Shown here piece after piece: positions 19,337 to 38,447 of a DNA stretch of 64,000 nt (the first letter of the stretch is position 1; every line of letters begins with the position of its first letter). The position numbers and the translations under genes were made by a program. This DNA is from Acidiferrobacterales bacterium. Its GTDB lineage: Bacteria; Pseudomonadota; Gammaproteobacteria; Arenicellales; JAJDZL01. The notes beneath the pieces were generated by a model. It had not been told where the DNA came from. It saw only the letters and a program-made list of their open reading frames with translations, and searched no databases. The DNA lies in the NCBI GenBank assembly GCA_028820695.1, contig JAPPIB010000055.1, positions 128,015 through 192,014 on the forward strand. Direction: 5' to 3'.

Positions 19337-19660
19337 TCAATAGCGGATGGTTCGCTGACCGTCGCTGTGCCGGCCATGATCAGTACGAAGTTCCTTGTGT
19401 TTGATCACCTGCCGGTCCAGCTTGCTGGACATGGCATCAATTGCCTTGAACATATCCGGTGCCTCTGACTTCGCATGAATGTACACCTTGCGCGCATGAA
19501 CAGTCGCTTCCGACTGGAAAGTGGACTTCTCCTTGTGCAGGATCACGTCAACTTTGGTGGGATGACGAAAATGGTTTCCCACCTTCTTCAGGCGCTTGTT
19601 CACATATTCCCGAACGGAATCTGTAATGTTCATATGGTGGCCTGTGATCGTAATTTCCAT
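19337..19660 (-). CDS. hpf: ribosome hibernation promoting factor (short HPF)
   Basis: MEITITGHHMNITDSVREYV... is the typical sigma54-modulation/HPF family N-terminus. The likely start is the ATG at 19660. Confidence 0.9.
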   Translation of the reverse strand: MEITITGHHMNITDSVREYVNKRLKKVGNHFRHPTKVDVILHKEKSTFQSEATVHARKVYIHAKSEAPDMFKAIDAMSSKLDRQVIKHKELRTDHGRHSDGQRTIRY

Positions 19661-19675
19661 AACAATACCTCTCAC

Positions 19676-21052: not shown

Positions 21053-21419
21053 GATTAACTGATTATTTATTCTACTGCAACCGGTGAGAATTACGCAAAG
21101 GATTTCCTGATTGCCGCAAGTTATAAGTATGCTTTGTGTACAGCGATGTCATTGCAAGTCATTGATCATTAATACGCAATACATCACGGAACGATGATTG
21201 GTCCGGTCCCGCACAGGTTCAGCCCCCATGAGTTCATGCAACAGCACGACGACCAGGTCAAGTGCCTCGACGTGCTGTTCAAGTTGAAATTTCTGACCGG
21301 AATATCTGGAAATTTACTTACCGGTAGTGACATTTGGTACAAATTGCTCTGACGCTTCGACAAACATCAGGCCATCCATTTGCCGCTACGGGAATTGTCC
21401 TTGGCCGCGCACATGGATC

Positions 21420-21644
21420 CTAGATCCGTACGAACCGGTGCTGGTCGCATGCATGCGTTGGTTCCTGCAGGCGATAAAGCTCCACGAAGGTTGAAATTTC
21501 CACAAGGGACAGCACGAGCAGTTGGAGGCGCTGGTCGGCGACTGACATTTCCTCGCCCCACCTCTTGTCCAAGTAATTCAACACCTCGTCGATCTGCCGT
21601 GTCATGGCATCGTAAAACGATCGCATCTCATCTGCCGAACTCAT
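21420..21644 (-). CDS. hypothetical protein (74 aa)
   Basis: The translation looks helical and protein-like (EMRSFYDAMTRQIDEVLNYLDKRW...). The SD is poor and it may be a relic. No family assignment was possible. Confidence 0.3.
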   Translation of the reverse strand: MSSADEMRSFYDAMTRQIDEVLNYLDKRWGEEMSVADQRLQLLVLSLVEISTFVELYRLQEPTHACDQHRFVRI

Positions 21645-21764
21645 GAGCTTAAGTTCTACCCGCTCCTGTTCGGACTCCAGCGACTACCTGACATATGGCT
21701 CCAGATTCGCAAATTCCGGATCGGGTCCGATATCCCCGATGCATACGAAAGATGTACACTACCG

Positions 21765-23963
21765 CTAGTCAGGAGAGTCCAGAATGACGCACGAGGTATA
21801 CAAATACCGGTATAGTTTGAGTGCCAGCGACTTTTCTTGCTGTTCAATCCAGCGCAACTCCTGCGTGCCTAGCAGCCATACCTTGCAAGGCAATTCGGCA
21901 ACCACTGAGTGTGCACGGGTATCCGCATCAAGCACAGGAAGAATTACATCTCCAACTCCACATTGACGAACTCTGGTTCCGTTTTGGTCAAACACTGTAG
22001 CTCTACCCGATGCAAGCAGATGAATACCCTCACCTTCCACTGCTGCTATCTTTTCATCCTGTTTGTATTCACGGGTTTCAAGCCATGCTGACAATGATTC
22101 GACTACATCTTCAAAACTAGTCATTCTGTCCAGGTATCGCTCGAGAAGTTCTTCCGATTGGGTCAGCAGGAACTCCCGTTTCAGGTCTGCGGTTTCAGCA
22201 TCGGATTCCCAGTTTTCTATGACCAGGTCTTCGCATCGCTCAAGTGCTTGATCCTTGCTCGATTCGAACCACAACTTCTCGAATGCAGAAGTCGGGACAT
22301 CCCGCATCAACCCTTTATGCAGTGCATCCGACATTGCGCAAATTACGACTTGCACACCATTTTCCGTCGAATTCTGGATAAACTGACCCAAAATGCTGAC
22401 AGCTGAGTAATCGACACCGGAAACAAGCTTCATATCAAGTATCAGGCAGGTTGGAGGCGCAGAATTATTGAGCGGCTTTCTGAGTCGTGCAACCAAGGGT
22501 CTGGCACTGCCGAAGAATAAGTATCCCCGCAGGCTGTACCCGCATATCTGATCTCCTGACTGTAAAAGAATAGTGCGTTCGGGCGGCTGTCGAACCTTCT
22601 TGCTTCGATACGTTCGACCCGTAAACTCGTCTGCAATGGGATCGACGAGACTCAGCCTCAGCGCAAAAAAGACAAGAGTCGCCAGCAAGCCTGCCACAAT
22701 ACCCTCGACAAAGCCAAAGACATTGATTACGACTACAATCAGCAATACGATCGCGTAATCGGTCGCAGGCATTTTTTTGTAGCTTTGATACAGCCCTTCG
22801 TCGAGCAGTCCTATGGCAACGAAGAATAACAGTCCGCTCAACAATGATACAGGCAAGAATTCGAGCACACCGGATCCAAAAAACAATCCTCCGCCAATGA
22901 CCAGTGCGCAAATTACGCTTGTCAATCGTGTTGATGCCCCGAAAAGCCAGCTTCGGTAGGTTGGAGGGACGACCATGTAAGTGAAGGTCGCGCCGCTGAC
23001 TCCCGAAAATATACTTGAAATTCCAGCGGCGGAAAACTCCCTGTCCCAGTTCAGTTCCCGGCCGACCAACGTCTCAAGCCCTGCAAGACTCATCACTACA
23101 CAGACAAGAGCGACAAAAATAAGTACCAGCAAATTCGGTATCTGATCTATAACCGCGTTCCAGTCTACTTTCGCCAAGTCTGTCGGAGTGATCACTGGCC
23201 ATAATACGCCTTCAACACTGTTCAGCAGCAACTTGGAGTCTCGAGCATCTTCAATCGACAACCCAAGAGCGACAAAGACCAAATGGTATGCCCCGACCAA
23301 GACAACGACACTGAACGGAAGGATCAGCGCATTTTTCCATCGTCGCATTGCGAAGAATAGTACAAGGCCGTACATCGCTCCGGGTAACCAAAGAACCAAT
23401 GAAGACGGTTCAAACAGGTGCGTATAATTTTGCGGGTCAAGCTCAACGCCCGCGATGGATACCGTGGCGATGCCGACCGCAATTCCCATTCCACCGACAA
23501 AACCTGCCGCTACCGAAAACGGAATGAATCTGACCAGCATCGAAAGACGCAGTCGTCCAATTAGCAGACACATCGTGCCGGCGACGACCGAGCCCAGAGT
23601 CAATGCCACCACAGTGGTTACAAAAAGAACCTCGCCACTCGCATCAATCGTAAGTCCCACCTGCGCCATGACAATCACCAGCGCGGGTGAAATCCCTGCT
23701 ATCGCCCCGCGAAAACTACCGGTCAAAGCGACCGAAATGCAACCGACAAATACGCCGAACAGTACCAGTCCAACACCTTGCGGCAAATATGGCTGTAACG
23801 GTCCGGAAAAAATCGCACCGGCGAAAGCAATGTGAGCAACCAGTATGCTCAGTCCCGCGGTGGAACCTGCTGAAAGCGCAGGAATGATTTTCAACGACTG
23901 GATGGTTCCAGCCGATTCGGTGTTTACACTTTTTGGCATCAGTATGCTTTGATTCAGCAGCAA
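21765..23963 (-). CDS. SulP/SLC26-family anion transporter with C-terminal STAS and cyclic-nucleotide-binding domains
   Basis: 732 aa. About 10-12 TM helices are followed by a STAS-like segment (LILDMKLVSGVDYSAVSILGQF). A cNMP-binding-like beta-roll follows (GEGIHLLASGRATVF...GVGDVILP). Confidence 0.8.
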   Translation of the reverse strand: MLLNQSILMPKSVNTESAGTIQSLKIIPALSAGSTAGLSILVAHIAFAGAIFSGPLQPYLPQGVGLVLFGVFVGCISVALTGSFRGAIAGISPALVIVMAQVGLTIDASGEVLFVTTVVALTLGSVVAGTMCLLIGRLRLSMLVRFIPFSVAAGFVGGMGIAVGIATVSIAGVELDPQNYTHLFEPSSLVLWLPGAMYGLVLFFAMRRWKNALILPFSVVVLVGAYHLVFVALGLSIEDARDSKLLLNSVEGVLWPVITPTDLAKVDWNAVIDQIPNLLVLIFVALVCVVMSLAGLETLVGRELNWDREFSAAGISSIFSGVSGATFTYMVVPPTYRSWLFGASTRLTSVICALVIGGGLFFGSGVLEFLPVSLLSGLLFFVAIGLLDEGLYQSYKKMPATDYAIVLLIVVVINVFGFVEGIVAGLLATLVFFALRLSLVDPIADEFTGRTYRSKKVRQPPERTILLQSGDQICGYSLRGYLFFGSARPLVARLRKPLNNSAPPTCLILDMKLVSGVDYSAVSILGQFIQNSTENGVQVVICAMSDALHKGLMRDVPTSAFEKLWFESSKDQALERCEDLVIENWESDAETADLKREFLLTQSEELLERYLDRMTSFEDVVESLSAWLETREYKQDEKIAAVEGEGIHLLASGRATVFDQNGTRVRQCGVGDVILPVLDADTRAHSVVAELPCKVWLLGTQELRWIEQQEKSLALKLYRYLYTSCVILDSPD

Positions 23964-24039
23964 CCTGCCTTTTACGATAGGTGCATTACTCCGAGATCAA
24001 CAATGACGGGCGAATCGGTCGAGCGGCTCCATCAGCCTG

Positions 24040-27000
24040 TCAGCTCTCCAGAGACCAGAAATGCTGCCGCTGAAATGGGTAGCCTGGCAAAGATATACGA
24101 CGTCTCTCCTCGCTCGCAAAAAGCCCGCGAAACTCTGGCGTCAATCCCGACTCATAGGTTTTCGCGACTGCTTCAAGATAAGCGGTTTCATCGGTCGACG
24201 AGCGACTTAGAGTGGCCACTGTCACCGGGCTTTCACCGTCTGCGGCTTTCGGCCAGGTCGAGGCCACCTTCAATCCTGTCGCCGATTGCGGACCGACTTC
24301 AATAATCAAATCGATGTCCTGTTGCGCGAGAGTTTCCGAAATTCGTCCCGGTCGCACCTTGTCGTAAGTCTGTCGATACCAGTATGCCCCATCGAAAACC
24401 TCACCCGATCCCACCAGTTCGCCTGTAGCCTGGTTCACCATAGACAGTGATGGCGGGTTAGCCTTGACTCCATCGAACGCCGCTTCAAGTTCCTCCAGTG
24501 CTGTGGCATCCGGTGGGCATTCATTCTGTAATGCAGCCATCAGGGCTCCTCTGCGAGCAGCAATGCGCAAACCGTCCTCTAGAGACAGCACGCCCGCCGC
24601 TTGCGCCGCAGCAATCTGACCCGCACCTGTCCCAAACACGACGCTCGGCCGGATGCCGATGCTCGACCACAGCGCTGTGAGCGCGCATTGAAGCGAATAG
24701 ATGACCGGTTGCGCACAAGCCGGATCGTCGAGCTTCCCGAAATCGCCTAGCACCACATCCAGTAACGAAATTTGCAACTCACTTGACGCCATCGTGTGCA
24801 GATGGTTCAGCACTGCCTGAACTACCGGTTCACTCCCATAAAGATTTTCACCAATCCCGCGCCAGTGGCTGTCATCTGCCAGGTATGCGAAGGCCGGCTT
24901 GATTGTCGCAGGCGAACTATGGTTGGCATCGGATTCCGCAAGCGATGCCAGTCTGGTTCTCAGGGAATCGGCATCCCCAAATAGTATGCCAGCGCGGTGC
25001 ATCCAATGACTGCGTCCCACACCTGCCGTCCACGCCATATCAGTCAACTTGCAACCAAGGGCATCGCTGTTCAAATGGGCTGCGCTGCCATTGTCGAGCC
25101 ATGCAAGATAGCGCCCTGCAAGTTTGCGCAGCGCGTCTTCGGATTTGCCCGAAAGCGGTAATATCCGCAACGGTCTTGTCTGCAGATCGTCCACGGCAAG
25201 TTCTGTAACCGGTGCCGGCAGAGAAACGTCGATGCGATTCGCGGCACCTGCCGGGGAATTGATTCCGCTTTCTCCTTCCATCGGATACTGTGGCGCTTCA
25301 TAACCCTCGACCACAAGGTGAGCATTTGTTCCCGAGATCGCGAATGCACTCACTCCCGCTCGGGGTGGACGACTGCGGCTCGTCGGCCACTTGGTCATCT
25401 CCGATGTCACCTGCACCGGAAAATCACTCCATTGTATGTGGGGATTCGGGTCCCGGAAGTGCAGATGTTTCGGGATCACCCCGCGCTTCATCGCCAGCAG
25501 GACCTTGATCAATCCCGCGACGCCGGCCGCCGGCTCCAGATGACCGATGTTGGTCTTGACCGTGCCGAGCAGAAGCGGGCGGTCAGCCTCGCGTCCCCTG
25601 CCATACACAGCGGCAGCGGCGCGCACTTCAATCGGGTCGCCTAACTGCGATCCCGTCGCATGTGCCTCGAGGTAATCCACTTCGCAAGGAGGGATTCCAG
25701 CCTGTTGAAGCGCTTCCTCAATCACCTCTTCCTGCGCGGTTCCTTTCGGTACGGTCAGCGCGGCGCTCAACCCGTTCTGATTCACCGCTGAACCTCGCAC
25801 CAAACCCCAGATGCGATCGCCATCCGCCTCGGCATCGCTCAGCCTCTTCAGAATCACGACTCCGCAACCCTCGCCGCGAACGAAGCCGTCCGCGGCCGCA
25901 TCGAATGTCTTGCACCGCCCGCTCGATGACAACATCCCGTACTCCTTCATGAAATTCGAAACTCGAGTAGAAAGTACCGTTTGCACTCCGCCCGCCAGAG
26001 CCATGTCAATCTCACCCGCCCTGAGGCTTGCGGCAGCCTGATGCACCGCCACGAGCGATGACGAACAAGTCATGTCCAGCGGAACCGCCGGACCCATGAA
26101 CCCCAGTGTAAAAGCGACCCTTCCGATGGCCACGCTCGGTGCGGTGCCAAGAAAACTGTCATCCGCGCCTCTGCTTATGGCCAGGTCCCGGTACTCGCTG
26201 CCGCTCAAACCGATATACACGCCGGTGCGAGAGCCTGCGAGCGGCGAAGGGCATATGCCCGCGTCTTCGAGTGCCAGCCAACTCGTTTCCAGCAACAGTC
26301 TTTGGCGCGGATCCATGGTGCGTGCCTCGATAGGCCTGATGCCAAAAAAGTCCGCATCGAAAAGATTGATTCCCTCAACGAATCCTCCTCTTCGAGAGAC
26401 ACTGTCCTCGGCGGCGGGATCTCCGAAAACGCCGTGCCAGGGACCAGGGTCTTCGCGCCCATCCGTTATCGCGTCCATACCTGCCTCGAGCTGTTGCCAA
26501 AAAGCATCCAGATCAGGTGCGCCAGGGAATCGGCACGCCATGCCCACAATCGCGATTCCGTCCTTTTCCGCACCAATCTTTACTGGTTGCACCGAAACGG
26601 GCTCGTCCTGTGCTGGAGGAGCGAAAGCAGGTTCCACTTCGCCGAGCTCGCTGGCAAGATGTCTGGCAAGTGCCGCGATGTCCGGGTAATCGAAAACCAC
26701 CGTGTTCGATGCCGTGTAGGTGTCAGCGAAAGCTTTATTCAGCCGATTACGAAATTCCACGGACATGAGCGAGTCCATCCCTAGATCAAAGAAACCTACC
26801 GTAGGCTCTGGCAGCGATGACAATCGCAGTACGGCCTTTAATTCCTGCTGCAGGAACGAACCCAGCAGGTCTTCGCGCTCCGCCACCGGTACCTGCCTGA
26901 CACGAGAGATCAGATCAACCGCCAGGGCAGGTGAATCCGCACTCTCCTCAGGGTCCAAGAAGAGCAGATCCTCAAGCAGCGGCGGCCGTTCTTCGACGGC

Positions 27001-30000
27001 CTCTTGGAAAACGGTCCAATCCATGGCCATCACGACAGAATTTGTGATGTCCTGCCGTACAAGCCGTTCAAATGCCTTGATGCCCTGTTGCGGGGTGAAC
27101 CAGCGACCGCCTCGTGCGGCACGCTGTCGTTCAATCCGGTCGCGCTGTTCTGCTGCCTCACCGATTTCGGACCACGCTCCCCAGGCGATTGCCTGTCCCG
27201 GAAGTCCCAGTGCTCGGCGATATCCGGCAAGCTGATCCAGAAACGCGTTGGCCGCGGCGTGGTTCGCCTGACCCGGGTTGCCCATCACGCCGACCCGACT
27301 CGAAAACAGAATGAAAAAATCCAGATCAATATCGACAGTAGAGCGGTGCAGATGCCAAGCCCCTAGTATCTTCGGCCATAACACGATTTGGAATCGCTGC
27401 CAATTCTGGTTCGTCAGCGCACCGTCGGACAAAAGCCCTACACTATGGATCACGCCGCCCAGCGGGGGAAGTTCCTCTTTAATCCGCGCCAGCATTGAAT
27501 TTACCTGGCCGGCATCCGATACATCCGCGAGTTCCACCCTGACTCTGAACCCTCGTTCGCGTAGCGAATCGATTGCCCTATCAACCTCCGGGTCTGGAGA
27601 ACGTCGTCCATTCAGCACGATCGTTCCGGCTCCGCGTTCGGCGAGCCAATCGGCGACTGCACATCCGATGCCGCCAAGCCCTCCGGTGACAAGATACGTC
27701 CTGTCCTGCCGCAAGCGGCCGTTTGCCAGCGGCGGCACCGTCAGGACAATCTTGCCGGTATGGCGGGCCGCCCGCATGAATCGCAATGCCGTTCCGGCCT
27801 CCGCCAGCGGCCATCTGCTATGAACAATCGGTCGCACTTGTCCTGCCGCAAGCTGTTTCATGACGTCGCGAAGAACCCTGCCAACCCTGGCCGGTTCGGT
27901 CTTCTTCATAACATCGAGCTCGAGGATGGCATAGGCTACGTCAGGACGAACCTGTGCCATCTCATCCTCGCTGAGTATGTCCCGCCTTGCCAGCTCGACG
28001 AACCGTCCGCCATTCGCCAGGCAGGATAGGCTCGCGTCTATGAAGCCTTCCCCTGTCAGACTGTTTAGCACCACATCCACACCGACGCCGCCGGTGGCAT
28101 TGAGAATTTCTTCTCCAAATGTGGTTTGGCGACTGTCAAAAATGTTCTCCACCCCGAGCGAACGAAGGTATGACTGCTTGGGCGCGCTCGCTGTAGCAAA
28201 GACTTCCGCCCCCGCGGCCTGCGCCAGCTGGATCGCCGCCAGACCGACGCCGCCGGCACCCGCGTGAATCAACACCTTGTCTCCCTTGTTCAGCCCGGAA
28301 AACTCGTAAGACAGGGCGGCCGAGACGAATGCGCTTGGCACCGTGGCGAGATCCGATGCGGAAAATCCGGTCGGGGCCGGCGCGACCAGTTCCTCTCTCG
28401 TAATCATTTCAAACGCAAACGCGCCGAATCCCAGTCCGGTTACGTGATCGCCAATACGAACAGTTGACACTTCGGCACCGAGCTCAATTACACGGCCGTA
28501 CATCTCCCTGCCCAGATCACCCTCTTCGATAAAGCCCAGCGAGCGAAACACATCCCAAAAGTTAAGGCCGATCGCCTCAACCGCAATACATACCTCCTTC
28601 GGCTTCAGGTTGCGAGGTTGCAAGGGCTTGATGCACGGTCTTTCAAAAACGCCGCCCGGATCCGGTGCCAGCACCCACGCCGCATCATCCGGCAGGGAGA
28701 GTCGCTCGGCCCCGGCGTCTCCCCGGACCAGGCGTGCAACGTGACGACGTCCCGATCGGTATGCGATGTGGTTTTCCGAGTCGGGGTACAAAAGTTCATT
28801 GACCAAATCGGGTTCCGGCGATATCGGTGCAGGATCCAGGTCAATCATCCTCGGTTGCAGGTCCGCCGCTTCAAGTATCACGGCCTTGCCGAACCCCCAA
28901 AGAACGCTGCCGGCGAGCTCCCCGCCCTGTTCCCGTTCCAATACCTGCGCCCCGCTGGTGATAAACCACACACCTAGTTGCGGTTTCGCATCAACATCCA
29001 TCATTCCCTGGACCATCGCTAACGCACTGGCACCGATCCGTCTCACGTCCTCAGCCATTTCCTCGTGCGATGCATCCGACCCGCGGCCATTGCAGGCCAT
29101 CAGGTGTACGGCACCGTGAAAATCCATATCCGATGGAAGACTTCGCATGAGCGAACACCAGGAATCTCGATGTTCCATGTCCAGGGAGACGTCAACCACC
29201 CCGGCTCCGGATATCTCCCATGACTTGTCATTCGACGGTCCGTTCTCAACCAGCATCACTACCTGATTGCGAGCAGCCAGCCGGGTTGCCAGCTCGCTTG
29301 CCATCTCACAGCGATCCCCCGCGAGAATCCAGACCCCCGGCGCTTCCATTACTTCGGCTGCACTTTGTGCGACGATCACCCCCTTGTCCGGAAACTCGGT
29401 TGGGTCCGACTCATTCACTCCCAGAACTTCCACTTCACTGAAACCGACATCAGCGAGCGCGCGGCGCCATATTGACGGACTTGCCAGGGCATGGTGGGGA
29501 CGGTAGCTGTCAGCGAACCGCCACCATCCGTCCAATTGCCCGAAAGTGAGATCCATCCAACCCTGACCGCTGAGATTTTCGAGTGCAACCAGCTGACCCG
29601 ACGGCGCGAGAAGCAAAAGGCAATGTGTCAGTGTTTCTTGAAGATCGCGAGTTGCGTGCAAGACGTTCGACGCAATCAGCAAATCATAGGAGTTGACGGC
29701 AAAGCCCTGCACCAGCGGATCTTTCTCAATATCCAAAGGACGGTATTCGATGGCGCCTCCACCATCACCGAAGCGTGATTCTGCTTGTGCAAAGAATCCT
29801 GCCGAGATGTCCGTGTACATGTAATCGAACTGTCCATCCGGCAGTTCCGGCAAGATGGCAGCGGTCGCCGAACCTGTCCCCGCGCCGACTTCAATTATCC
29901 GAAGACGCTTTCCCTCGGGCCGGTCGGCCACGAGGGTGCGAATTGTCTCTTTCAATATCCGATTGGCTGCCCGCGCCACAGGTGCTTTCAGATACAGATC

Positions 30001-33000
30001 TCCAGGTGTCGGATCTCCGCTGCTGAACAGCAGCGTCAAAGGATCCTCTTTGGCGCGCAGTACATCAGCCAAGGCACCGCCACATCGTCTGAACAGGCCA
30101 ATTTCGTTGGTGCCGTGGCGATAACGCGAGACCATCGTGGAAACAAATTCCTCGATGTCCTCCGGCAATTCATCCGGCAACGGGTCATCCGGACCAACCC
30201 GGACGACGAATCCGTCGCCTGCCTGTTCCAATATTCCGGATTTTGCCAGCAGCTCAAGTATTCTGCGAAACAGGCGTTTATGGATAGCTTCAACCCCTAA
30301 GTGCTGGCGCAGATTCTCAGCGTTCAGCGTTGCGCCCGTTTCGCGCTTCCATCCGAGTTTCTCCAAGGTCGCAAGTGCATGACGACGCGACCACTGTTCC
30401 AAGTCGTTCAACAGAGCGCTTCTGTCGTCGCGCGAAACGCCTTCTTCAGCGAGATATTCGGCAAGCAGACCGGAACGGCGCGCCACGTCAGCCGGTGACG
30501 GAAGGAAGTCGGCAGGCACCATTCCCTGGGCCAGAACGACTTCTCGCCAGACGATCTCGTAAAGAAGATCATCGACTCCTTCGACTGCCGACAGCAACGC
30601 AGCACGCGTTGCGCGTTTTACGGTGTAGCCCTCCAATGCGCCGATCAGGTGCCCGGCCGAATCGTAGATGCGTATTTCACCACTCATTGCCTCCGCCGGA
30701 AGCTCGGCTTGCGTTTCAGCTTCCTGGACGGATTGCGTCATCTGTACATGGCACAAGACCGTTCGCGGCAGTCGCTCCCTGATCCACAGTCGCTTCCAGC
30801 CAAAAGGCATATAAGTCGTTTCATCTTCAACTCCACCCATAGTCCGCGCCGCAGCCACGACCTGGAAGCAGCCGTCCAGCACGAGCGGATGAACATCAAG
30901 TTTTTGCTGGTCGTAAACGCTGGGTAATGTCACCTCGCCCAGTGCTTCTCCCGGCCGGCACCATATGCCGCCGAGTGTTCGGAACGACGAGTCGAGATCA
31001 ATCCCTGTGGCGGAACGGGCGCGGTAGTAAGCCGCCGCATCCACCGGTTCGAAGCCGGATTTCAGACTGTCGGGATCGATTCGGTCTTCGTTTTGCACAT
31101 CCGGTGCACCACGCAAGACTCGGCACTCCACGTGATTCGTCCATCCCTCCTCGCTGCCTTTGCTGAATATCCTGACACGTCGGGACTTCGTTTCATCTTC
31201 GGAGTCAACCACGAGCTGAAGCCTGCGGACTGTCTCATCCACACTCTTCGCAGGATCTTCCGGCTGGAAGATCAGTGCATTCAGCAGTTGCATATCTTCA
31301 ACAACCACCGCGCGGTCCCCTTCGTCAAGGGCCGCAGATATCGACATGGCGCCGTAGAGCGCCCCTGGCGCAACGACCCGGCCGAACACTCGATGATCGC
31401 TCATCCACTGCGGGTCCGACGCAGAGATCTCCGTCTCGAATGTAACCTCCCCGCTAGCCGACTCGTAGCGATCGCCCAGCAGTGGATGCCCGGCACCGCG
31501 ACGCCGTTCCCGGGTCGAATCAAGCCAGTGGCGTTCGCGCTGGAACGGATAGTTGGGGATTGCGATTCGCCGGCGTTGCTCTCCAGCGTATAGCCCTTCA
31601 AAGTTTACCCGGAGCCCCGCCCGGTACGCTTGCGCAACCGCCTCGAAGAAACCATCGCTGCTACCGGACTGTTGTGCATCTTCCTTCGGTGGATGCATGC
31701 TTGCGAGCACTGTCGGCAACTGCGCATCGTCGCAATCCGGCCAAGCTGAGAGCGTCATCGCGCCCAACAACGGGCGCGGCCCTATTTCCACGATCACACC
31801 GACCCCGGCTTGCGCCAGCGATGCAGTTCCAGCAGCGAATGCCACCGGTTCGCGGGCATGTCGCCTCCAGTACGCTCCCTCAAGCAGCTGGCCGGTCTCA
31901 ACCGGCCGTCCGGTAAGATTGCTGACGATGGCGAGGGCGGCGGGTTTGATCGATATATCATCCAGCGACGTTTCCAGTGCATCCAATGCCGGGTCCAGCA
32001 AGGCACTGTGGAACGCCCGCTTCGTATTCAGCCGCCTTGTGCGAACACTTTCGACTTCGAAACGCTTGCATATGCTTTCAATATCCTCGACCGGGCCGCT
32101 CACCACCTGATGGCTGCCATTGTCTGCTGACACGCTGATGCCAGCGCGACTGGAAGATGAATTGAACTGTTCGACGATTGACGCAACCGTGTCGTGTGGA
32201 GCAAATACCGCGGCCATCGCACCGGGTTGGGTATTCGAAAGGATGGTGCCCCGCCTCTGTGCGAACCGCATGCCATCTTCCAAGCTGTAAACGCCCGCTG
32301 CCTGTGCGGCCGCCAGTTCTCCGACACTGTGTCCCACAACCACGTCGGGACGAATCCCGACACTGTTCCAAAGTGCTGTCAAAGCGCACTCGAGTGCGTA
32401 AAGCGCCGGCTGCTCCCACGCTGTGTCGTCCAGTCTGCCTTGTCCTGCGCCGTCCCTCGCGAACATTACGTCCAGCAAAGAAGCGCCTCCCTGTTCGCGA
32501 AATACTTGCTCACAGCGGTCGAACACTGCCCGCGCCACCGGTTCGCTTTCATAAAGCATCTGCCCCATGCCGGTCCATTGGCTGCCTTGCCCGGTATAGA
32601 CGAATGCCACCTTGATCTGAGAATGCTGTGGGATTTCGTCATCCTGTTTGACCAATAACCGAAGCTGCTCCCGCAGCGACCCGACGTCCTCGAACACAAT
32701 GCCCGTTCGGTGACTGAAATGACTTCGTCCGACACTGGCTGTCCATGCCATGTCGGACAGCAAAGCCCCTGCTGCAGTGTCTTGTGCTCCAATCGCCTTT
32801 GCCTGCGCATCGAGCCATGAGAGGTACCGTTCGGCGAGAGCTCGTGCACCTGCCGACTTGCCCGAAAGCGGAAGCAAGCGGCTGGCACGCTGCTTAAGCT
32901 CTTCATTCGGCATCGAAATATTCTTTGCTGCAGTCGACGAAGTTACCGCGATAGGTTTTGCAGATCCTGCCGTCAGATCTTGTTCGTAAGGTGCCTTGTC

Positions 33001-34395
33001 AGGTGCACAATATTCTTCCACGACAATATGGGCGTTCGTGCCGGAAATTCCGAAAGAATTCACTCCTGCAAGGCGCGGACGTCTGTCGTGTTGCGGCAGG
33101 TCCATCATCGAAGTGACGACCTGTACAGGCAGAAGATTCCAATCCAGACTCGAATTCGGATTGTTGAAGTGCAGGTGCTTGGGAATCGTACCGCGTTGCA
33201 TGACGAGCACTGCCTTGATCAGGCCTGCAATTCCGGCGGCCGACTCCAGGTGACCGACGTTGGTTTTCACAGAACCGACCAGAAGCGGTCGGTCGGCCAT
33301 GCGATTGTTTCCATAGACTGACGCTACCGCATTGATCTCGATTGGATCGCCCACCGACGTTCCGGTACCATGCGCCTCGAGATAATCGACTTGCGACGCG
33401 GTGATTCCTGCCTGCGAGAGCGCCTCTTCCATGACTTGCTCAAGCGCTGGTGTGTGCGGAACCGTGAGCCCGCTGCTGGCACCGCCGTGATTGACCGCTG
33501 AACCTCGGATGACGCCCCAAATTCGATCACCGTCGCGTTCCGCGTCGCTCAGCCGCTTGAGGACAACGGCACCGCAGCCTTCGCCTCGCACATAGCCGTT
33601 CGCGGAATCGTCGAACGCCTTGCACTGGCCATCCGGGGAAAGCATCATCGCATCTGCGCGCAGTTCGAATATGCGGCCACTCAAGATTGCCTGCACACCA
33701 CCTGCGATCGCCAGATCCGCCTTCCCCTGCTGAAGGTCTGAAACCGCATCGTGGACCGAAACCAGGGACGATGCGCAAGCGGCGTCGACCGCTTTCGAAG
33801 GCCCCCTGAGTCCCAGTACGAAAGAGACCCGACCACTGGTTCCGTTCAGGTTGGTGCCGCTGAGGGCATAAAGGCAGGCGGCAGCCTCGGCAGGCTTGTT
33901 CGATCCCACCACCAGCATCCTGTATTCGTCGTTGCTGATCCCTGTATATACGCCGGTGCGGCTGCCCATCAGCTGATCAGGGTCTATTCCTGCGTCCTCA
34001 AGAGCGTGCCAGCTGGTCTCGAGCATCATTCGCTGTTGCGGGTCGAGAAAGTCGGCCTCGACAGGCGAAATTCGAAAGAAACCAGCGTCAAAACCATCGA
34101 TCCCATCAACGAAGGCACAGTAACGGCAGGCGCTGTCCAATTCCTCAAGATCCGGAAATAGTTCATCCACGCGCTGGTTTCCGCTACCCGGGACGATTTC
34201 GCAGACCGAGTTTCCGCCAGATTCAAGAAGTTCCCAGAATTCAGAAATACTCGACGCACCTGGAAACCGGCACGCCATTCCTATCACTGCGACTGGTTGG
34301 ACAGGTTGTAAATTTCTTGCGTGATCCTTCACAGAATAGCTGGAAAATTTGAAGCTATTGTTTATGTGTACCCATGTTGACAATTCAGGTATCAA
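24040..34395 (-). CDS. type I polyketide synthase, 3451 aa: KS-AT-DH-cMT-(psiKR)-ER-KR-ACP-KS-degenerate AT
   Basis: KS1 has DAACASS (C207), EAHGTG and NVGHLE. AT1 has GQGSQW, GHSVG (S690) and RAFHS, which indicates malonyl specificity. DH has HRVFGRVVAP and LDGCFQ. The MT domain has IEVGAGTG. ER has LIHAGAGGVG. KR has TGGLGGIG, LWPK, FSS and GQANHAAAN. ACP has LGMDSL (S2542). KS2 has MTCSSS (C2777), EAHATG and NIGHLE. The AT-like tail has GTGAG in place of GHSxG. A TTG start is assumed, so the exact start is uncertain. Confidence 0.95.
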   Translation of the reverse strand: MIPELSTWVHINNSFKFSSYSVKDHARNLQPVQPVAVIGMACRFPGASSISEFWELLESGGNSVCEIVPGSGNQRVDELFPDLEELDSACRYCAFVDGIDGFDAGFFRISPVEADFLDPQQRMMLETSWHALEDAGIDPDQLMGSRTGVYTGISNDEYRMLVVGSNKPAEAAACLYALSGTNLNGTSGRVSFVLGLRGPSKAVDAACASSLVSVHDAVSDLQQGKADLAIAGGVQAILSGRIFELRADAMMLSPDGQCKAFDDSANGYVRGEGCGAVVLKRLSDAERDGDRIWGVIRGSAVNHGGASSGLTVPHTPALEQVMEEALSQAGITASQVDYLEAHGTGTSVGDPIEINAVASVYGNNRMADRPLLVGSVKTNVGHLESAAGIAGLIKAVLVMQRGTIPKHLHFNNPNSSLDWNLLPVQVVTSMMDLPQHDRRPRLAGVNSFGISGTNAHIVVEEYCAPDKAPYEQDLTAGSAKPIAVTSSTAAKNISMPNEELKQRASRLLPLSGKSAGARALAERYLSWLDAQAKAIGAQDTAAGALLSDMAWTASVGRSHFSHRTGIVFEDVGSLREQLRLLVKQDDEIPQHSQIKVAFVYTGQGSQWTGMGQMLYESEPVARAVFDRCEQVFREQGGASLLDVMFARDGAGQGRLDDTAWEQPALYALECALTALWNSVGIRPDVVVGHSVGELAAAQAAGVYSLEDGMRFAQRRGTILSNTQPGAMAAVFAPHDTVASIVEQFNSSSSRAGISVSADNGSHQVVSGPVEDIESICKRFEVESVRTRRLNTKRAFHSALLDPALDALETSLDDISIKPAALAIVSNLTGRPVETGQLLEGAYWRRHAREPVAFAAGTASLAQAGVGVIVEIGPRPLLGAMTLSAWPDCDDAQLPTVLASMHPPKEDAQQSGSSDGFFEAVAQAYRAGLRVNFEGLYAGEQRRRIAIPNYPFQRERHWLDSTRERRRGAGHPLLGDRYESASGEVTFETEISASDPQWMSDHRVFGRVVAPGALYGAMSISAALDEGDRAVVVEDMQLLNALIFQPEDPAKSVDETVRRLQLVVDSEDETKSRRVRIFSKGSEEGWTNHVECRVLRGAPDVQNEDRIDPDSLKSGFEPVDAAAYYRARSATGIDLDSSFRTLGGIWCRPGEALGEVTLPSVYDQQKLDVHPLVLDGCFQVVAAARTMGGVEDETTYMPFGWKRLWIRERLPRTVLCHVQMTQSVQEAETQAELPAEAMSGEIRIYDSAGHLIGALEGYTVKRATRAALLSAVEGVDDLLYEIVWREVVLAQGMVPADFLPSPADVARRSGLLAEYLAEEGVSRDDRSALLNDLEQWSRRHALATLEKLGWKRETGATLNAENLRQHLGVEAIHKRLFRRILELLAKSGILEQAGDGFVVRVGPDDPLPDELPEDIEEFVSTMVSRYRHGTNEIGLFRRCGGALADVLRAKEDPLTLLFSSGDPTPGDLYLKAPVARAANRILKETIRTLVADRPEGKRLRIIEVGAGTGSATAAILPELPDGQFDYMYTDISAGFFAQAESRFGDGGGAIEYRPLDIEKDPLVQGFAVNSYDLLIASNVLHATRDLQETLTHCLLLLAPSGQLVALENLSGQGWMDLTFGQLDGWWRFADSYRPHHALASPSIWRRALADVGFSEVEVLGVNESDPTEFPDKGVIVAQSAAEVMEAPGVWILAGDRCEMASELATRLAARNQVVMLVENGPSNDKSWEISGAGVVDVSLDMEHRDSWCSLMRSLPSDMDFHGAVHLMACNGRGSDASHEEMAEDVRRIGASALAMVQGMMDVDAKPQLGVWFITSGAQVLEREQGGELAGSVLWGFGKAVILEAADLQPRMIDLDPAPISPEPDLVNELLYPDSENHIAYRSGRRHVARLVRGDAGAERLSLPDDAAWVLAPDPGGVFERPCIKPLQPRNLKPKEVCIAVEAIGLNFWDVFRSLGFIEEGDLGREMYGRVIELGAEVSTVRIGDHVTGLGFGAFAFEMITREELVAPAPTGFSASDLATVPSAFVSAALSYEFSGLNKGDKVLIHAGAGGVGLAAIQLAQAAGAEVFATASAPKQSYLRSLGVENIFDSRQTTFGEEILNATGGVGVDVVLNSLTGEGFIDASLSCLANGGRFVELARRDILSEDEMAQVRPDVAYAILELDVMKKTEPARVGRVLRDVMKQLAAGQVRPIVHSRWPLAEAGTALRFMRAARHTGKIVLTVPPLANGRLRQDRTYLVTGGLGGIGCAVADWLAERGAGTIVLNGRRSPDPEVDRAIDSLRERGFRVRVELADVSDAGQVNSMLARIKEELPPLGGVIHSVGLLSDGALTNQNWQRFQIVLWPKILGAWHLHRSTVDIDLDFFILFSSRVGVMGNPGQANHAAANAFLDQLAGYRRALGLPGQAIAWGAWSEIGEAAEQRDRIERQRAARGGRWFTPQQGIKAFERLVRQDITNSVVMAMDWTVFQEAVEERPPLLEDLLFLDPEESADSPALAVDLISRVRQVPVAEREDLLGSFLQQELKAVLRLSSLPEPTVGFFDLGMDSLMSVEFRNRLNKAFADTYTASNTVVFDYPDIAALARHLASELGEVEPAFAPPAQDEPVSVQPVKIGAEKDGIAIVGMACRFPGAPDLDAFWQQLEAGMDAITDGREDPGPWHGVFGDPAAEDSVSRRGGFVEGINLFDADFFGIRPIEARTMDPRQRLLLETSWLALEDAGICPSPLAGSRTGVYIGLSGSEYRDLAISRGADDSFLGTAPSVAIGRVAFTLGFMGPAVPLDMTCSSSLVAVHQAAASLRAGEIDMALAGGVQTVLSTRVSNFMKEYGMLSSSGRCKTFDAAADGFVRGEGCGVVILKRLSDAEADGDRIWGLVRGSAVNQNGLSAALTVPKGTAQEEVIEEALQQAGIPPCEVDYLEAHATGSQLGDPIEVRAAAAVYGRGREADRPLLLGTVKTNIGHLEPAAGVAGLIKVLLAMKRGVIPKHLHFRDPNPHIQWSDFPVQVTSEMTKWPTSRSRPPRAGVSAFAISGTNAHLVVEGYEAPQYPMEGESGINSPAGAANRIDVSLPAPVTELAVDDLQTRPLRILPLSGKSEDALRKLAGRYLAWLDNGSAAHLNSDALGCKLTDMAWTAGVGRSHWMHRAGILFGDADSLRTRLASLAESDANHSSPATIKPAFAYLADDSHWRGIGENLYGSEPVVQAVLNHLHTMASSELQISLLDVVLGDFGKLDDPACAQPVIYSLQCALTALWSSIGIRPSVVFGTGAGQIAAAQAAGVLSLEDGLRIAARRGALMAALQNECPPDATALEELEAAFDGVKANPPSLSMVNQATGELVGSGEVFDGAYWYRQTYDKVRPGRISETLAQQDIDLIIEVGPQSATGLKVASTWPKAADGESPVTVATLSRSSTDETAYLEAVAKTYESGLTPEFRGLFASEERRRISLPGYPFQRQHFWSLES

Positions 34396-34432
34396 TCCAA
34401 TGAATTATAAGGCTTGGCCAAAGCGGGATTGT

Positions 34433-34447
34433 TTCGAATCATTCGAA
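34433..34447. promoter_or_regulatory. perfect 15-bp palindrome TTCGAAT-N-ATTCGAA about 40 nt upstream of the PKS start (candidate operator)
   Basis: ttcgaatcattcgaa reads identically on both strands except for the central base. It lies in the 238-nt hydrolase-PKS spacer. Confidence 0.25.
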
Positions 34448-34633
34448 GCTGCGATATTGCCTTACGGTTCTGTACGTGCACACGCTGGCGTTTGCCGAAC
34501 GGACAGTGCGGGGCCCCACCGGTGCGATGGTGCGACTTGAAACAGTTTGTCGGACTAGTCGGCGGGAAGTTTTCGAGTACAGCCTGTCAACCGGAATCAC
34601 ACTCGCCGGATACCTGCCCACCATTCAATCCGG

Positions 34634-35569
34634 CTACTGACCAATGTGGACTTTACGATTGTCCAATAGATTATGCTGTTCGAGAAATTCCCTTATTACA
34701 GCAACACATTCCTTGGGCTGTTCGAGTTGAAGCAAATGGGTTGTGTCGGGGAGGAAATCGTAATCCAAGCTGTGGATTTGGCTCAAATCAAATGTCGGAA
34801 GATATGAGTAGGGGAGAACCGGGTCGGCACCAACAACTTTGGTCGGACAGTCAATCTCTTCCAAGTCAACCCAGACTGTGTACATCCTGGCGTAGTTGAT
34901 GATCTGTGCTTCATAAGTACGAGGGCAGCGCAAACTGTAGCCGTCTCCCCCGTCATTTTTTTTTAGCATTGTTCTTGCTGCAAGATCGAGTACACCAGGA
35001 ACGGTGCGGTGATACACAGGAAGCCAGCTAAGCAAATCGACAAACTCATCCAAGGACTTGAAAGTATCTGTTCGACGCAGGGCGGCTTCTGTCGACCGTC
35101 TGGTTGCTATATCGTATTCTTCAGGGTAGTCATTAGGTTTGCACAATGGCGGATCAAACAAAATGCGCGCGGCGAAATCACAGTTCCCGGTGGAGGAGAC
35201 AAGTGAGGCCAAAGCGGAAACAGAATGGAATATTCCGATTTTCGGCTTCTTGCCGTACCTGACATCAATTTCATCGAGTATACGGTCGTGATCATCAACA
35301 AGTGCTGGAACAATGTGATCTGCCTGTGCGCCGACGGCGTTCCAGCCATGATTTCTAAGGTCAAAAACAAATAGCTCAAAGTCTTGGGCTAAAAGCGACC
35401 AAAACGGATAATACAAGTCGATGGCAAGACCGTTGCCATGACTCAATACAAGCCTCGGTCCGTTTGGATTCCCATGTTGCCGCAGATGGATGACAGTACC
35501 GTCGTCCATGCGAATTCTGTGCACGGAAAGCGGCTCAGGCACTTCCCATACCCTATCTTTACATGCCAT
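34634..35569 (-). CDS. alpha/beta-fold hydrolase (candidate thioesterase/release enzyme of the PKS cluster)
   Basis: 311 aa with the oxyanion motif LSHGNG, a nucleophile-elbow variant GIFHSVSA and a C-terminal His in DTTHLLQLEQP. Confidence 0.75.
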   Translation of the reverse strand: MACKDRVWEVPEPLSVHRIRMDDGTVIHLRQHGNPNGPRLVLSHGNGLAIDLYYPFWSLLAQDFELFVFDLRNHGWNAVGAQADHIVPALVDDHDRILDEIDVRYGKKPKIGIFHSVSALASLVSSTGNCDFAARILFDPPLCKPNDYPEEYDIATRRSTEAALRRTDTFKSLDEFVDLLSWLPVYHRTVPGVLDLAARTMLKKNDGGDGYSLRCPRTYEAQIINYARMYTVWVDLEEIDCPTKVVGADPVLPYSYLPTFDLSQIHSLDYDFLPDTTHLLQLEQPKECVAVIREFLEQHNLLDNRKVHIGQ

Positions 35570-35574
35570 GGAAA

Positions 35575-36306
35575 TTACTCATCCGCGATGCGAGCGATAG
35601 CTGGAACCAACTCGTGTGCAATTGCGGCAGCGAAATCAGTGTTGCCCATATCTTCAAGCTTCCAGAAAATATCCGGAAGGTGCGGGAACCTGAATGTGGC
35701 GGACCGGGCGCCATGTCGCATGCTTGGCGGGACTTGGAATCTGGACGGATCAAGAGAAAATCCAGTGCCAAGGGCTTTGATCAGTGCCTCCTTCAGTGTC
35801 CACAGGGTATAGAAAAAGTGAGGCTTTTCTCGAACCTGTCTGGAAGACAACTCGGTTTGCTCTTGCTCACCAAACACTATCTTGCCTATTCCATCAAAGT
35901 CGTTGCTGTCGATGCGCTCCTCGACATCCACTCCAACTCGTCCTTCGGAAGCAAACGCGATTAACCCATGCATGCCACTGTGACTTAGGTTGAAACTCGT
36001 TTGAACCGCCACACCGTCGATCAATGCGAACGGCTTCCCGTATTCGAAATTGTCAAAAGAAAGCAGTCTGTTGTCACAGTCGAGCCTATGACAAAGATTC
36101 ATGCGCAACGCTGCCCGACAAAGCGCAAACTCGCGCTGAGGACGAGAAAACTTATACCGGTGCCAGCGCTCCCGCTCAGACTTGTCAAGCTGCGAGAAGG
36201 CACGCTCCTCACGCGATTTATTCGGGGTCAGATCAACATGGACAACGGACACATCTGCAACTTCACAAAAACATCTGAACCACAAATCCTCATCTTCGTT
36301 AAGCAT
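35575..36306 (-). CDS. Sfp-type 4'-phosphopantetheinyl transferase
   Basis: 243 aa with GVDVEE and FYTLWTLKEALIKALG, the W/FxxKEA motif. Confidence 0.85.
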   Translation of the reverse strand: MLNEDEDLWFRCFCEVADVSVVHVDLTPNKSREERAFSQLDKSERERWHRYKFSRPQREFALCRAALRMNLCHRLDCDNRLLSFDNFEYGKPFALIDGVAVQTSFNLSHSGMHGLIAFASEGRVGVDVEERIDSNDFDGIGKIVFGEQEQTELSSRQVREKPHFFYTLWTLKEALIKALGTGFSLDPSRFQVPPSMRHGARSATFRFPHLPDIFWKLEDMGNTDFAAAIAHELVPAIARIADE

Positions 36307-36360
36307 GATGCTCTTGCATTCAAAAATGCGTTGTTTGCCGTGCCAGTCTACCCTTAATGA

Positions 36361-36396
36361 AAATCGGCCCTCTGATACAACAACAGGGCCGATTTA
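36361..36396 (-). terminator. hairpin plus U-tract downstream of the stand-alone ACP gene
   Basis: In the minus orientation: aaatcggccct-gttgttgtatcag-agggccgattt followed by tcatt. This is an 11-bp stem with a GC core, about 30 nt after the ACP stop. Confidence 0.45.
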
Positions 36397-36424
36397 AATT
36401 ATCCAGAATTGATCGAAGTCTGTC

Positions 36425-36646
36425 TCATCCGGAAAGATGATTGATCAGATCTCGTAAACTGCTGAAACCGGAAGCGACATCGCTCGTTATTGTTACGTCG
36501 AACTCCTCATTAATCACTTTGAGAAAATTCACAGCATCCATCGAATTCACCCCTAGTTCAGAAAAATTGGAATCCAGCAAGGCTCGATCGGATATGCCCA
36601 AGTGCAGCTCAATTAAATCTCCTACGCGTTGCTCAACGCTTCCCAT
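36425..36646 (-). CDS. stand-alone acyl carrier protein
   Basis: 73 aa with a four-helix ACP pattern. The attachment motif LGVNSMDAV is an NS variant of the usual DS. Confidence 0.8.
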   Translation of the reverse strand: MGSVEQRVGDLIELHLGISDRALLDSNFSELGVNSMDAVNFLKVINEEFDVTITSDVASGFSSLRDLINHLSG

Positions 36647-37112
36647 GACAAAACCTCCTTAATTGATGTTTACATGAATTACCAGGTGGCTGCAACCTCA
36701 GCCAAACTTCAAGCAGTTTCAATTGTAGTTTAATTTTTCTCATTATGTGAGCGGTATCACAACTTGATTTCGGCACAGTGGAGGGCTCGCCTGATGGCGC
36801 TCATTCAAGGGCAAGGACGCGTCCAATTGTCTCGCTGCCAAAATCCCTGATTCTACGATGCCGGCTGTGCCGTGTTCGCGCATGCAGATTGGCTGAATTT
36901 GCGAATCGCATATCGAAACAGTCGGTCGGGGCGTTTTGACAGCCGCGAATGCGAGCGTACGGGATGCGCCTTGCATAATTCATCAGCCGATGTCCTTGAG
37001 AATTCTTGAAACGGTATCCACGCGTCACGCCGCGCGGCAGGAGATTCTCCACTGGCGGTGTGCCTGCACATATGTGATCCGGTCAGTTGAGCCGGTTCTG
37101 CTCAACGCTCTG

Positions 37113-37862
37113 CTAAATCCGGAAACTATGACCCAGATAGAATTTCTTTGCGGATTCATCCTCCATAATCTGCTGGGCAGTTCCGGAGGCAACGACGACG
37201 CCGTCGTTCATGATGTGGGCGCGGTGGCAGACCGTCAGCGTTTCGCGTACATTGTGATCGGTGATGAGAAATCCGACATTGCGCCTGCACAGCGCCTGAA
37301 GCAGTTCGGTCAGTTCGATCACCGCGATGGGGTCAATACCGGCAAACGGTTCGTCCAGCAAGATGAATCTCGGCTCCAGTGCAAGTGATCTCGCCATTTC
37401 GACCCGCCGTCGTTCTCCGCCGGACAGTGTTGCGGCTTTCTGGTCGCGCAGGTGTTCGATCTGGAACTCGCTCAGCAAGTCATACAGACATTCCTGGCGC
37501 TGATAATGCGTGACGGACCTGTTGGTTTCCAGCATTGCGGTAATATTCTGTTCGACAGTGAGATTACGGAAGATCGACGAATCCTGGGGTAGATAACCGA
37601 CACCCTTTCGGGCCCGGGCGTACATCGGCAACCCCGAGATATCATCCCCATCGAGCAGGACGGATCCACTGTCGCACTTTTCCAACCCGATTACGGCATT
37701 GAAACAGGTTGTCTTCCCCGCGCCATTGGGTCCCAGCAGACCGATGATTTCACCACTATCGACGTGCAGACTGACTGAATCGACAACCTTCCGGGACCGG
37801 AACGATTTGGAAATATTGACAACTTCCAGTCGGCTGGCTACGGAGTTCATGGTTGACAGCAT
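37113..37862 (-). CDS. lptB: LPS export ABC transporter ATP-binding protein LptB
   Basis: 249 aa with GPNGAGKTT, LSGGERRRVEMAR and LLDEPFAGIDP. It is followed upstream by lptA and lptC. Confidence 0.93.
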   Translation of the reverse strand: MLSTMNSVASRLEVVNISKSFRSRKVVDSVSLHVDSGEIIGLLGPNGAGKTTCFNAVIGLEKCDSGSVLLDGDDISGLPMYARARKGVGYLPQDSSIFRNLTVEQNITAMLETNRSVTHYQRQECLYDLLSEFQIEHLRDQKAATLSGGERRRVEMARSLALEPRFILLDEPFAGIDPIAVIELTELLQALCRRNVGFLITDHNVRETLTVCHRAHIMNDGVVVASGTAQQIMEDESAKKFYLGHSFRI

Positions 37863-37897
37863 TTTGTCAGCTCAACTCACGTCCAGACGGTTCGACT

Positions 37898-38410: not shown

Positions 38411-38447
38411 TTTCCATCCATTCGATCCGCATTTCACGATTTCAGGC

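Follow-up and report, generated by a model that had tools for sequence, protein, structure and literature searches.

What is a polyketide synthase (PKS) cluster doing between lptB and rpoN, two genes whose adjacency is the general state of the Proteobacteria, as in the yrbG-lptB-rpoN locus of Escherichia coli? The question is raised by a 64,000-nucleotide stretch of DNA (the window; positions 128,015 to 192,014 of contig JAPPIB010000055.1, assembly GCA_028820695.1) from a bacterium named as Acidiferrobacterales and placed by GTDB in the Arenicellales, in which about 16 kb of genes separate lptB from rpoN. An earlier interpretation drawn from the letters of the window (here the sequence-only reading) had described a split of this normally tight junction that bore no classical signature of mobility, had suggested that the placement might tie a lipid-like polyketide to the envelope and sigma-54 operon, and had not recognised the arrangement as one already described. 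We found that the split is a true insertion. Its cargo is probably a horizontally acquired Sup-type ('sponge symbiont ubiquitous PKS') cassette, sitting in the lptB-rpoN spacer of an Arenicellales-related gammaproteobacterium at a position that looks incidental. The supposed polyketide-envelope-sigma-54 arrangement would then be one more copy of the PKS cassette that is commonest in sponge microbiomes, at an insertion site that is clean and can be defined precisely.

The insert splits an ancestral lptB-rpoN spacer

We scanned one genome per GTDB species with RpoN and obtained four Arenicellales metagenome-assembled genomes (MAGs; loci L002-L005), two of which are complete chromosomes, that carry an empty lptB-rpoN junction of the kind the sequence-only reading had proposed to look for. 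In all four the spacer is 157–158 bp long, with lptB ending at position 9842/9843 of the fetched locus and rpoN starting at 10001; the flanks are syntenic with those of the window, and none of the six insert genes is present there. The upstream host flank in the window consists of lptC (38909-38448; Pfam LptC), lptA (38464/38500-37898; LptD_N) and lptB (37850/37862-37113; ABC_tran), spanning 37113-38909, and the downstream flank of rpoN (21052-19676), hpf, ptsN, rapZ, npr and ptsI, spanning 15797-21052 and assigned by Pfam and synteny. The sequence-only reading had placed every gene correctly, and flanks and insert alike lie on the minus strand. Identities between the window and the four relatives are 90–91% for MlaE, 89–90% for MlaF and 84–86% for LptB (86% to the L002 protein); on the other side they are 73–74% for RpoN, 84–87% for Hpf and 83–85% for PtsI, with the downstream flank mostly at 73–87% and ptsN at 65% against L004. 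The order and orientation of both flanks are also those of the canonical proteobacterial lptCAB-rpoN-hpf-ptsN-rapZ-npr locus (the E. coli yrbG-npr region), which differs in having a short spacer where the window has 16 kb.

The four empty spacers can be aligned to each other end to end, and to the DNA at both borders of the insert. Next to lptB, about 43 nt (37070-37112, minus strand) align with the beginning of the four empty spacers, the ~43 nt that follow the stop codon of lptB, and next to rpoN about 85 nt (21053-21137, minus strand) align with the same four sites, as also seen by blastn. The rpoN-side remnant contains a sigma-70 promoter-like sequence, TTGCGT-N18-TAGAAT, that is kept in all five genomes and was matched by a promoter scan at 21090-21062. 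Because both ends of the spacer survive in this alignment, the foreign segment can be delimited to ~21138-37069, or ~15.9 kb. The insert splits the ancestral spacer and both remnants have been left in place.

The composition of the segment, which the sequence-only reading had suggested profiling, points the same way. Inside the insert, the correlation of tetranucleotide usage with the rest of the window is 0.76–0.86, down from 0.90–0.94, and GC content at third codon positions (GC3) is 0.46–0.55 for the acyl carrier protein (ACP), hydrolase, phosphopantetheinyl transferase (PPTase) and SulP genes of the insert versus 0.61–0.66 for the flanking genes. A classical genomic island or integrative element was considered and rejected, this atypical composition being the only island-like trait. 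Pfam found no integrase or transposase domain in the scanned open reading frames (ORFs) of the insert, shadow ORFs of both strands included, and returned no match for the small and shadow ORFs within or overlapping it, so that no hidden transposase remnant came to light. There is no tRNA near the insert, the sole tRNA of the window lying at 1441-1517 and being the only element that Rfam found, and no repeats occur at either insert end. When all intergenic regions of the insert were compared by blastn with every fetched locus, only the rpoN-proximal spacer remnant and a homologue of a 74-aa ORF (see below) were matched; the non-coding right end of the insert (21138-21419, minus strand) has no match among these loci and folds no better than shuffled sequence. 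A scan of metagenome contigs with RpoN found no relative, and our literature search turned up no published island at this junction. These results uphold what had been proposed from the sequence, a tight junction split without integrase, transposase, tRNA or border repeats.

Homologous cassettes occur at unrelated loci

Reading from lptB towards rpoN, the insert encodes a free-standing 73-aa ACP (36425-36646; PF00550, E 2.6e-12), an Sfp/HetI-type 4'-phosphopantetheinyl transferase (35575-36306; PF01648 and PF22624, with HetI as the best NCBIfam model, below its cut-off), a 311-aa alpha/beta-hydrolase (34634-35569; PF12697) and a type I PKS, the 3451-aa ORF at 34395-24040 (3430 aa from the GTG at 34332, the start used by public gene callers), followed by a SulP permease and the 74-aa ORF. 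Full-length homologues of the PKS were found at five further loci (L006, L007, L010, L011 and L013), where they could be aligned up to residue 3447, or only to ~3417 in L010. Their identity to the window enzyme is 66–70% in L006, 61–62% in L007, 63% in L011 and 63% in L013, while the frameshifted pieces of L010 range over 48–83%, or 61–83% outside the degenerate acyltransferase, with 76% for the best ketosynthase. A 3486-aa PKS at L012 is a more distant relative, 49% identical over the fetched N-terminal ~1,400 residues. Some of these PKS genes are interrupted. That of L011 (10001-22249) is split by a DDE_Tnp_1_4 transposase gene (13780-15378), and in L010 and L006 the PKS is spread over several gene calls, possibly because long reads introduced frameshift errors.

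The smaller genes travel with the PKS. A free 73-aa ACP, a PPTase and a hydrolase of ~304 aa adjoin it in L010, L012 and L013, with identities to the window proteins of 58–73% (ACP), 55–61% (PPTase) and 61–70% (hydrolase), and a hydrolase and an ACP adjoin it in L011. Because these three genes recur beside homologous PKSs, the PKS, ACP, PPTase and hydrolase are, judged by comparative sequence analysis, a conserved functional unit whose internal gene order is variable. The genes around the unit differ each time: glyceraldehyde-3-phosphate dehydrogenase and sulfatase genes in L007, hydantoinase genes in L013, insertion sequence elements and a restriction-modification-like gene in L006, and Uma2 genes, a xanthine/uracil-type (Xan_ur) permease and polyhydroxyalkanoate/beta-oxidation genes in L012.

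L012 is of particular use, as it is taken to lie on the same Arenicellales chromosome (OY762925.1, 3,820,606 bp) as L003, one of the four empty sites. The L012 cluster (1-12853 of the fetched locus) is at 2.72 Mb and the empty lptB-rpoN spacer of L003 is at 1.29 Mb, ~1.4 Mb away. Clusters of this kind are therefore common in the Arenicellales lineage, but at other chromosomal positions. The window PKS is nearer to copies in other lineages than to the L012 copy. The best matches to its ketosynthase-acyltransferase region and to the hydrolase (60–76%) are in MAGs labelled Bryobacterales, Chloroflexi, Gemmatimonadetes, Latescibacteria, Nitrospinae, Rhodospirillales, Deltaproteobacteria and Gammaproteobacteria, most of them without a sample description; one is a bin of the SB0662 sponge series, which also yielded the sponge-specific Entoporibacteria. 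Since the cassette occurs at many unrelated sites, the lptB-rpoN location is best explained by chance integration into an intergenic site that tolerates it, and not by regulatory design.

The PKS combines one reducing module with a second ketosynthase and a dead acyltransferase

Pfam and motif searches resolved the PKS into a ketosynthase (KS1, 34299-33016), an acyltransferase (AT1, 32604-31678), a dehydratase (DH, 31488-30595), a C-methyltransferase (cMT, 29961-29431), an enoylreductase (ER, 28605-27742), a ketoreductase (KR, 27699-27166), an internal ACP (26853-26656), a second ketosynthase (KS2, 26559-25300) and a degenerate terminal AT (24903-24061), all on the minus strand. The order is thus KS-AT-DH-cMT-ER-KR-ACP-KS-dead AT, with the first module, through the internal ACP, at residues 33–2580. 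KS1 has the Cys-His-His triad and the motifs DPQQR and HGTGT; AT1 has GHSVG and RAFH, with malonyl-type motifs; DH has HxxxGxxxxP and DxxxQ; cMT and ER carry their cofactor motifs; and the internal ACP has GMDSL. The Cys-His-His residues of KS2 are also intact. In the terminal AT (residues ~3165–3445), GTGAGQ replaces GHSxG, ~75 residues including the specificity region are missing, and no carrier domain follows. The degenerate AT and the intact KS2 are shared with the three aligned full-length homologues of L006, L007 and L011, and across the family the GHSxG position of the terminal AT reads GTGAG, GSGPA, GQGPG or GQGLG. Because the same dead AT and intact KS2 recur in these homologues, both peculiarities are, as far as alignment can tell, traits of the family and not local decay.

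The KR is unusual in another way. His2379 (27259-27261, minus strand) sits at the place of the catalytic Tyr in the GQxxYAAAN motif, and in our alignments it stands opposite the Tyr of mycocerosic acid synthase (MAS) and of the AmphB KR. The closest solved KR by sequence is that of MAS (9d2z, E 3e-42). We assume that the KR still works, given that DH, ER and cMT are intact and well conserved. For the C-terminal part of the protein NCBIfam offered generic models (PKS_plus_SDR, Pks13 and Pks2), all far below their cut-offs. The dead terminal AT, a KS2 that would depend on a free ACP and the KR His are thus features of a family of abundant enzymes, and they bear on what is still an unproven product.

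The cargo is probably of the Sup type of sponge-associated PKS

The original description of the Sup cluster is reportedly that of Fieseler et al. in 2007. In the accounts that have since summarised it (PMC3908369, PMC4245539, PMC9426513), Sup PKSs are small enzymes resembling fatty acid synthase (FAS), ubiquitous in sponge microbiomes and specific to them, with methyl-branched fatty acids as their proposed product (PMC4245539, PMC3908369). They dominate KS amplicons from sponges of high microbial abundance, with 123 variants in one specimen, and mid-chain branching of the product has been proposed (PMC4245539; PMC3908369). Among MAGs, SUP gene cluster families are known from Chloroflexota, Spirochaetota, Proteobacteria and Acidobacteriota, 'independent of bacterial taxonomy' (PMC9426513). 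One gene of the sup cluster encodes a permease, SupE, and a SupE homologue on a Plakortis fosmid adjoins a STAS ('anti-anti-sigma') gene (PMC3908369, Table 1); the motifs DPQQR and HGTGT are those targeted by primers that recovered sup genes (PMC3908369).

The insert shares with these clusters a FAS-like type I PKS with a C-methyltransferase and a predicted methyl-branched fatty acid. A permease gene accompanies it too, and its homologues lie in MAGs of many phyla, at least some of them from sponges, which would agree with the published distribution (PMC9426513). The single reducing module with its C-methyltransferase is present with all motifs intact except for the Tyr-to-His change in the KR, and is followed by the additional KS-dead AT. 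SupA, too, reportedly carries further C-terminal domains and ends in KS-AT, and supB-D are reported to encode an ACP, a PPTase and a hydrolase, the set that recurs beside the homologous PKSs. It differs from the described clusters in its gene order, which is ACP-PPTase-hydrolase-PKS-permease and does not begin with the PKS; in its permease, of the SulP-STAS(-cNMP-like) kind and dissimilar to the permeases beside the homologous clusters that we inspected; and in its integration site, the lptB-rpoN spacer of an Arenicellales-like genome, which appears to be unreported. Among the matches listed in a search with the first 950 aa of the PKS were only gene-call fragments of ≤1,663 aa, none of them named SupA and none of them the complete window PKS itself, and the name SupE was absent among the 120 SulP matches listed. 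The sequence-only reading had taken the arrangement as one not previously described; the cargo appears to match a type of cluster known since 2007, and only the insertion site appears to be unreported.

If the cargo is of this type, an Arenicellales-like gammaproteobacterium joins the hosts of Sup-type cassettes, and a single lineage can carry distinct Sup variants, each at its own locus. The locus would also be a well-resolved example of such cassettes moving between phyla without recognisable mobility genes, with the empty site, both spacer remnants and a decayed passenger all visible.

Weighing alternative explanations

Could the cluster be ancestral at lptB-rpoN, and have been lost by deletion from the four Arenicellales relatives? 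Only four relatives were examined, at 73–74% RpoN identity and with no closer ones found, and the insert contains a decayed gene and so is not brand new, both of which leave some room for this history. Against it, the empty spacers align fully, and precise deletion, whether independent or ancestral, is less parsimonious than one insertion; lptB and rpoN are generally adjacent in Proteobacteria, the insert departs from its host in composition, and the window PKS is nearer to those of other lineages (61–83%) than to that of the Arenicellales relative (49%). We regard ancestral presence as very improbable. Less credible still, and close to negligible in our estimate, is a chimeric assembly in which a PKS contig was joined to a housekeeping contig. 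The source is a short-read metagenome scaffold, and the many Sup-like PKS variants in a sponge sample (123 supA variants in one specimen; PMC4245539) invite mis-joins. However, both junctions fall in non-coding DNA and carry complementary halves of the ancestral spacer, which is the signature of a real insertion and not of a random join; the window is identical to part of a 200-kb ENA metagenome scaffold (ROBB21-1_SAMN13943214 scaffold_83), with the locus in mid-scaffold; second contigs exist with identical RpoN and LptB and the same neighbours; and border repeats are absent. It is the complementary spacer halves, the internal position and the matching second contigs that make a chimera unlikely. 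A further alternative accepts the insertion and gives its placement a function, with read-through from lpt, altered rpoN expression, or both, keeping a lipid-like polyketide in step with LPS (lipopolysaccharide) transport or sigma-54 regulation. In its favour, all genes are co-oriented, the product is probably a lipid, the envelope genes lptCAB and mlaFE are adjacent, and no strong intrinsic terminator was found on the minus strand between lptB and the ACP gene or between the SulP gene and rpoN. Yet homologous cassettes stand in six other, unrelated contexts, none of them beside lpt or rpoN, and the cassette of the Arenicellales relative is 1.4 Mb from an empty lptB-rpoN spacer. Moreover, rpoN keeps its conserved promoter-like block, the cassette has a promoter-like site and ribosome-binding site (RBS) of its own, and between the cassette and rpoN lie a dead gene and 280 bp of non-coding DNA that matched nothing. 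The sigma-54 promoter pattern was no more frequent than expected by chance and had zero matches in the intergenic regions of the cluster; terminator and promoter scans showed no enrichment over shuffled sequence, and the 373 nt that precede rpoN gave no better fold than their shuffled versions. The tie to the envelope and sigma-54 operon raised by the sequence-only reading is therefore not sustained, and we think a functional placement improbable. The same low credence goes to a bolder version, in which the cassette has been co-opted: an lpt promoter would read through it, the methyl-branched acyl product would enter envelope lipids, and rpoN would depend on its proximal promoter alone, while, as a separate matter, the Tyr-to-His KR and the KS-dead AT with its free ACP would amount to a biochemically undescribed PKS logic.

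The remaining alternative concerns not the site but the identity of the cargo, namely that the PKS belongs to another FAS-like family (Swf, the WcbR/RkpA capsule-lipid PKSs, or a MAS/Pks type) and makes a different product. This is unlikely, though less so than any of the alternatives above. The KR is most MAS-like, the C-terminal NCBIfam matches are generic, and the comparison with Sup was made through published descriptions. The Swf cluster (SwfA-C; PMC3908369) is alike in having a mono-modular FAS-like PKS that is widespread in sponge symbionts, and one swf cluster has a SulP-like permease (a SupE homologue) and a STAS gene in its vicinity. SwfA, however, is KS-AT-DH-ER-KR-ACP, with neither a cMT nor a terminal KS-AT, and its KS motifs are DPQ(I/V)R and HATGT; Swf clusters also carry SwfB (a reductase and sulfotransferase) and, usually, SwfC (a radical SAM protein) (PMC3908369), neither of which is encoded in the insert. 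Swf identity was ruled out by the cMT, by DPQQR and HGTGT in KS1 and by the absence of a reductase-sulfotransferase or radical SAM gene from the insert. MAS and MAS-like mycobacterial PKSs are iterative, fully reducing KS-AT-DH-ER-KR-ACP enzymes that likewise turn fatty-acyl starters into methyl-branched fatty acids. MAS, in contrast, takes its branches from methylmalonyl-CoA, where the window enzyme pairs a malonyl-type AT1 with an in-line cMT; its KR has the catalytic Tyr, and it lacks both a terminal KS-dead AT didomain and a free ACP of its own. A cMT-containing module, a spread over MAGs of phyla that are typical for sponge microbiomes and a nearby permease all fit the Sup description (PMC4245539, PMC9426513, PMC3908369).

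Several points weigh against the reading that we prefer, a Sup-type cassette acquired horizontally and placed by accident, and are best set out together. Membership of the Sup clade, which we hold to be probable, was drawn from architecture, accessory genes, distribution and published descriptions. The host is probably a sponge symbiont, the sponge origin of the sample being read from the label ROBB21 (cf. PMC8163846). The accessible literature gives no demonstrated product for any member of the family. The Tyr-to-His change in the KR recurs in L007, L011 and L013, and full reduction is not assured. Among the permeases, the closest homologues of the SulP protein (56–57%, two loci inspected) do not adjoin a PKS, and those beside the L011 and L012 clusters are of the Xan_ur type and unrelated to it. 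As to the assembly, the same reads may have been assembled again to give the second contigs.

A proposed pathway

The domain content of the cassette suggests a possible route to a branched acyl chain. KS1 would take a fatty-acyl thioester from primary metabolism as its starter, because the PKS has no loading module. AT1 would supply malonate for one round of extension, cMT would add an alpha-methyl group from S-adenosylmethionine, and KR, DH and ER would complete its reduction, so that the internal ACP would carry an alpha-methyl-branched acyl chain. KS2, with its dead AT and no ACP to follow, would most plausibly condense this chain with malonate held on the free ACP, or merely hand the chain over. 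The free ACP would be primed by the PPTase of the cluster and loaded by AT1 or by FabD. Thereafter the hydrolase might release or transfer the product, or the type II FAS might elongate the chain, which would turn the methyl group into a mid-chain branch.

The hydrolase has features in keeping with such a step. Ser116 (in G-x-F-H-S), Asp249 and His278 are invariant in the alignment of its homologues, of which 2405 were found, the best at 60–70% identity. An AlphaFold2 model with a pLDDT (predicted local distance difference test) of 76 had as its top Foldseek match the CurM off-loading thioesterase (3qit), barely ahead of generic esterases, and a sequence search of the PDB gave marginal matches only. 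We consider the protein likely to be a chain-release or transfer enzyme. NCBIfam made no above-cut-off assignment for the hydrolase, the ACP, the PPTase or the SulP protein.

Leader, passengers and neighbouring genes

The lptB-proximal end of the insert (36647-37069, minus strand) is the non-coding leader of the ACP operon. It holds the promoter-like site of the cassette at 36751-36722 and an AAGGAGG RBS; its small ORFs have no Pfam match, and it has no similarity to the other fetched loci. Directly 3' of the ACP gene and before the PPTase gene, an inverted repeat at 36355-36401 (minus strand) forms a predicted hairpin with an 11-bp GC-rich stem and a U-rich tail. This hairpin may be a partial terminator, and might then raise expression of the ACP relative to the genes downstream.

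Beyond the PKS lies a SulP-family permease with a STAS domain (23963/23939-21765, minus strand; 724–732 aa, 724 from 23939; PF00916 and PF01740). The sequence-only reading had called it a SulP-STAS-cNMP transporter. SulP and STAS held up, but the cyclic nucleotide monophosphate (cNMP)-binding domain is a sub-threshold match: its model, PF00027, scored 20.6 bits, below the cut-off of 27.5, and a C-terminus of this kind was seen in five of 16 homologues. The protein belongs to a large family of ~730-aa proteins, and the GC3 of its gene (0.52) groups it with the foreign accessory genes. It lies within the insert and may be a mere passenger; its link to the pathway is uncertain, and we do not claim it as part of the conserved core.

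The 74-aa ORF (21644-21420) is likewise present as reported, but it is not an intact gene. It corresponds to the last ~70 residues of a protein family whose members are ~115 aa long and forms part of a decayed gene at 21420-21758 (minus strand), recognised by a search of representative sequences, alignment of homologues and in-frame translation. The N-terminal third can be read in frame upstream, with a TAG (21686-21684) where the homologues have Trp and with no start codon (PEFANLEPYVR*SLESEQERVELKL in the window versus PKAFATLEPFLDWALETERERIDRRL in a homologue). An intact homologue in L016 overlaps the stop codon of a Rieske oxygenase gene. By this comparison the 74-aa ORF is what remains of a decayed gene that has no relation to the PKS, which implies that the insert has been resident here for a while or brought debris along.

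Beyond the lptB side of the locus, mlaF and mlaE are divergent from lptC. Past mlaFE, a beta-oxidation-type block at 40860-50646 contains genes that Pfam alone assigns to a 3-hydroxyacyl-CoA dehydrogenase, a thiolase, an acyl-CoA synthetase, an alpha/beta-hydrolase and an enoyl-CoA hydratase. It is followed, at 50829-51455 on the minus strand, by a gene whose 208-aa product belongs to the GPP34 (Golgi phosphoprotein 3) family (PF05719, E 2e-34), the best-known members of which are eukaryotic.

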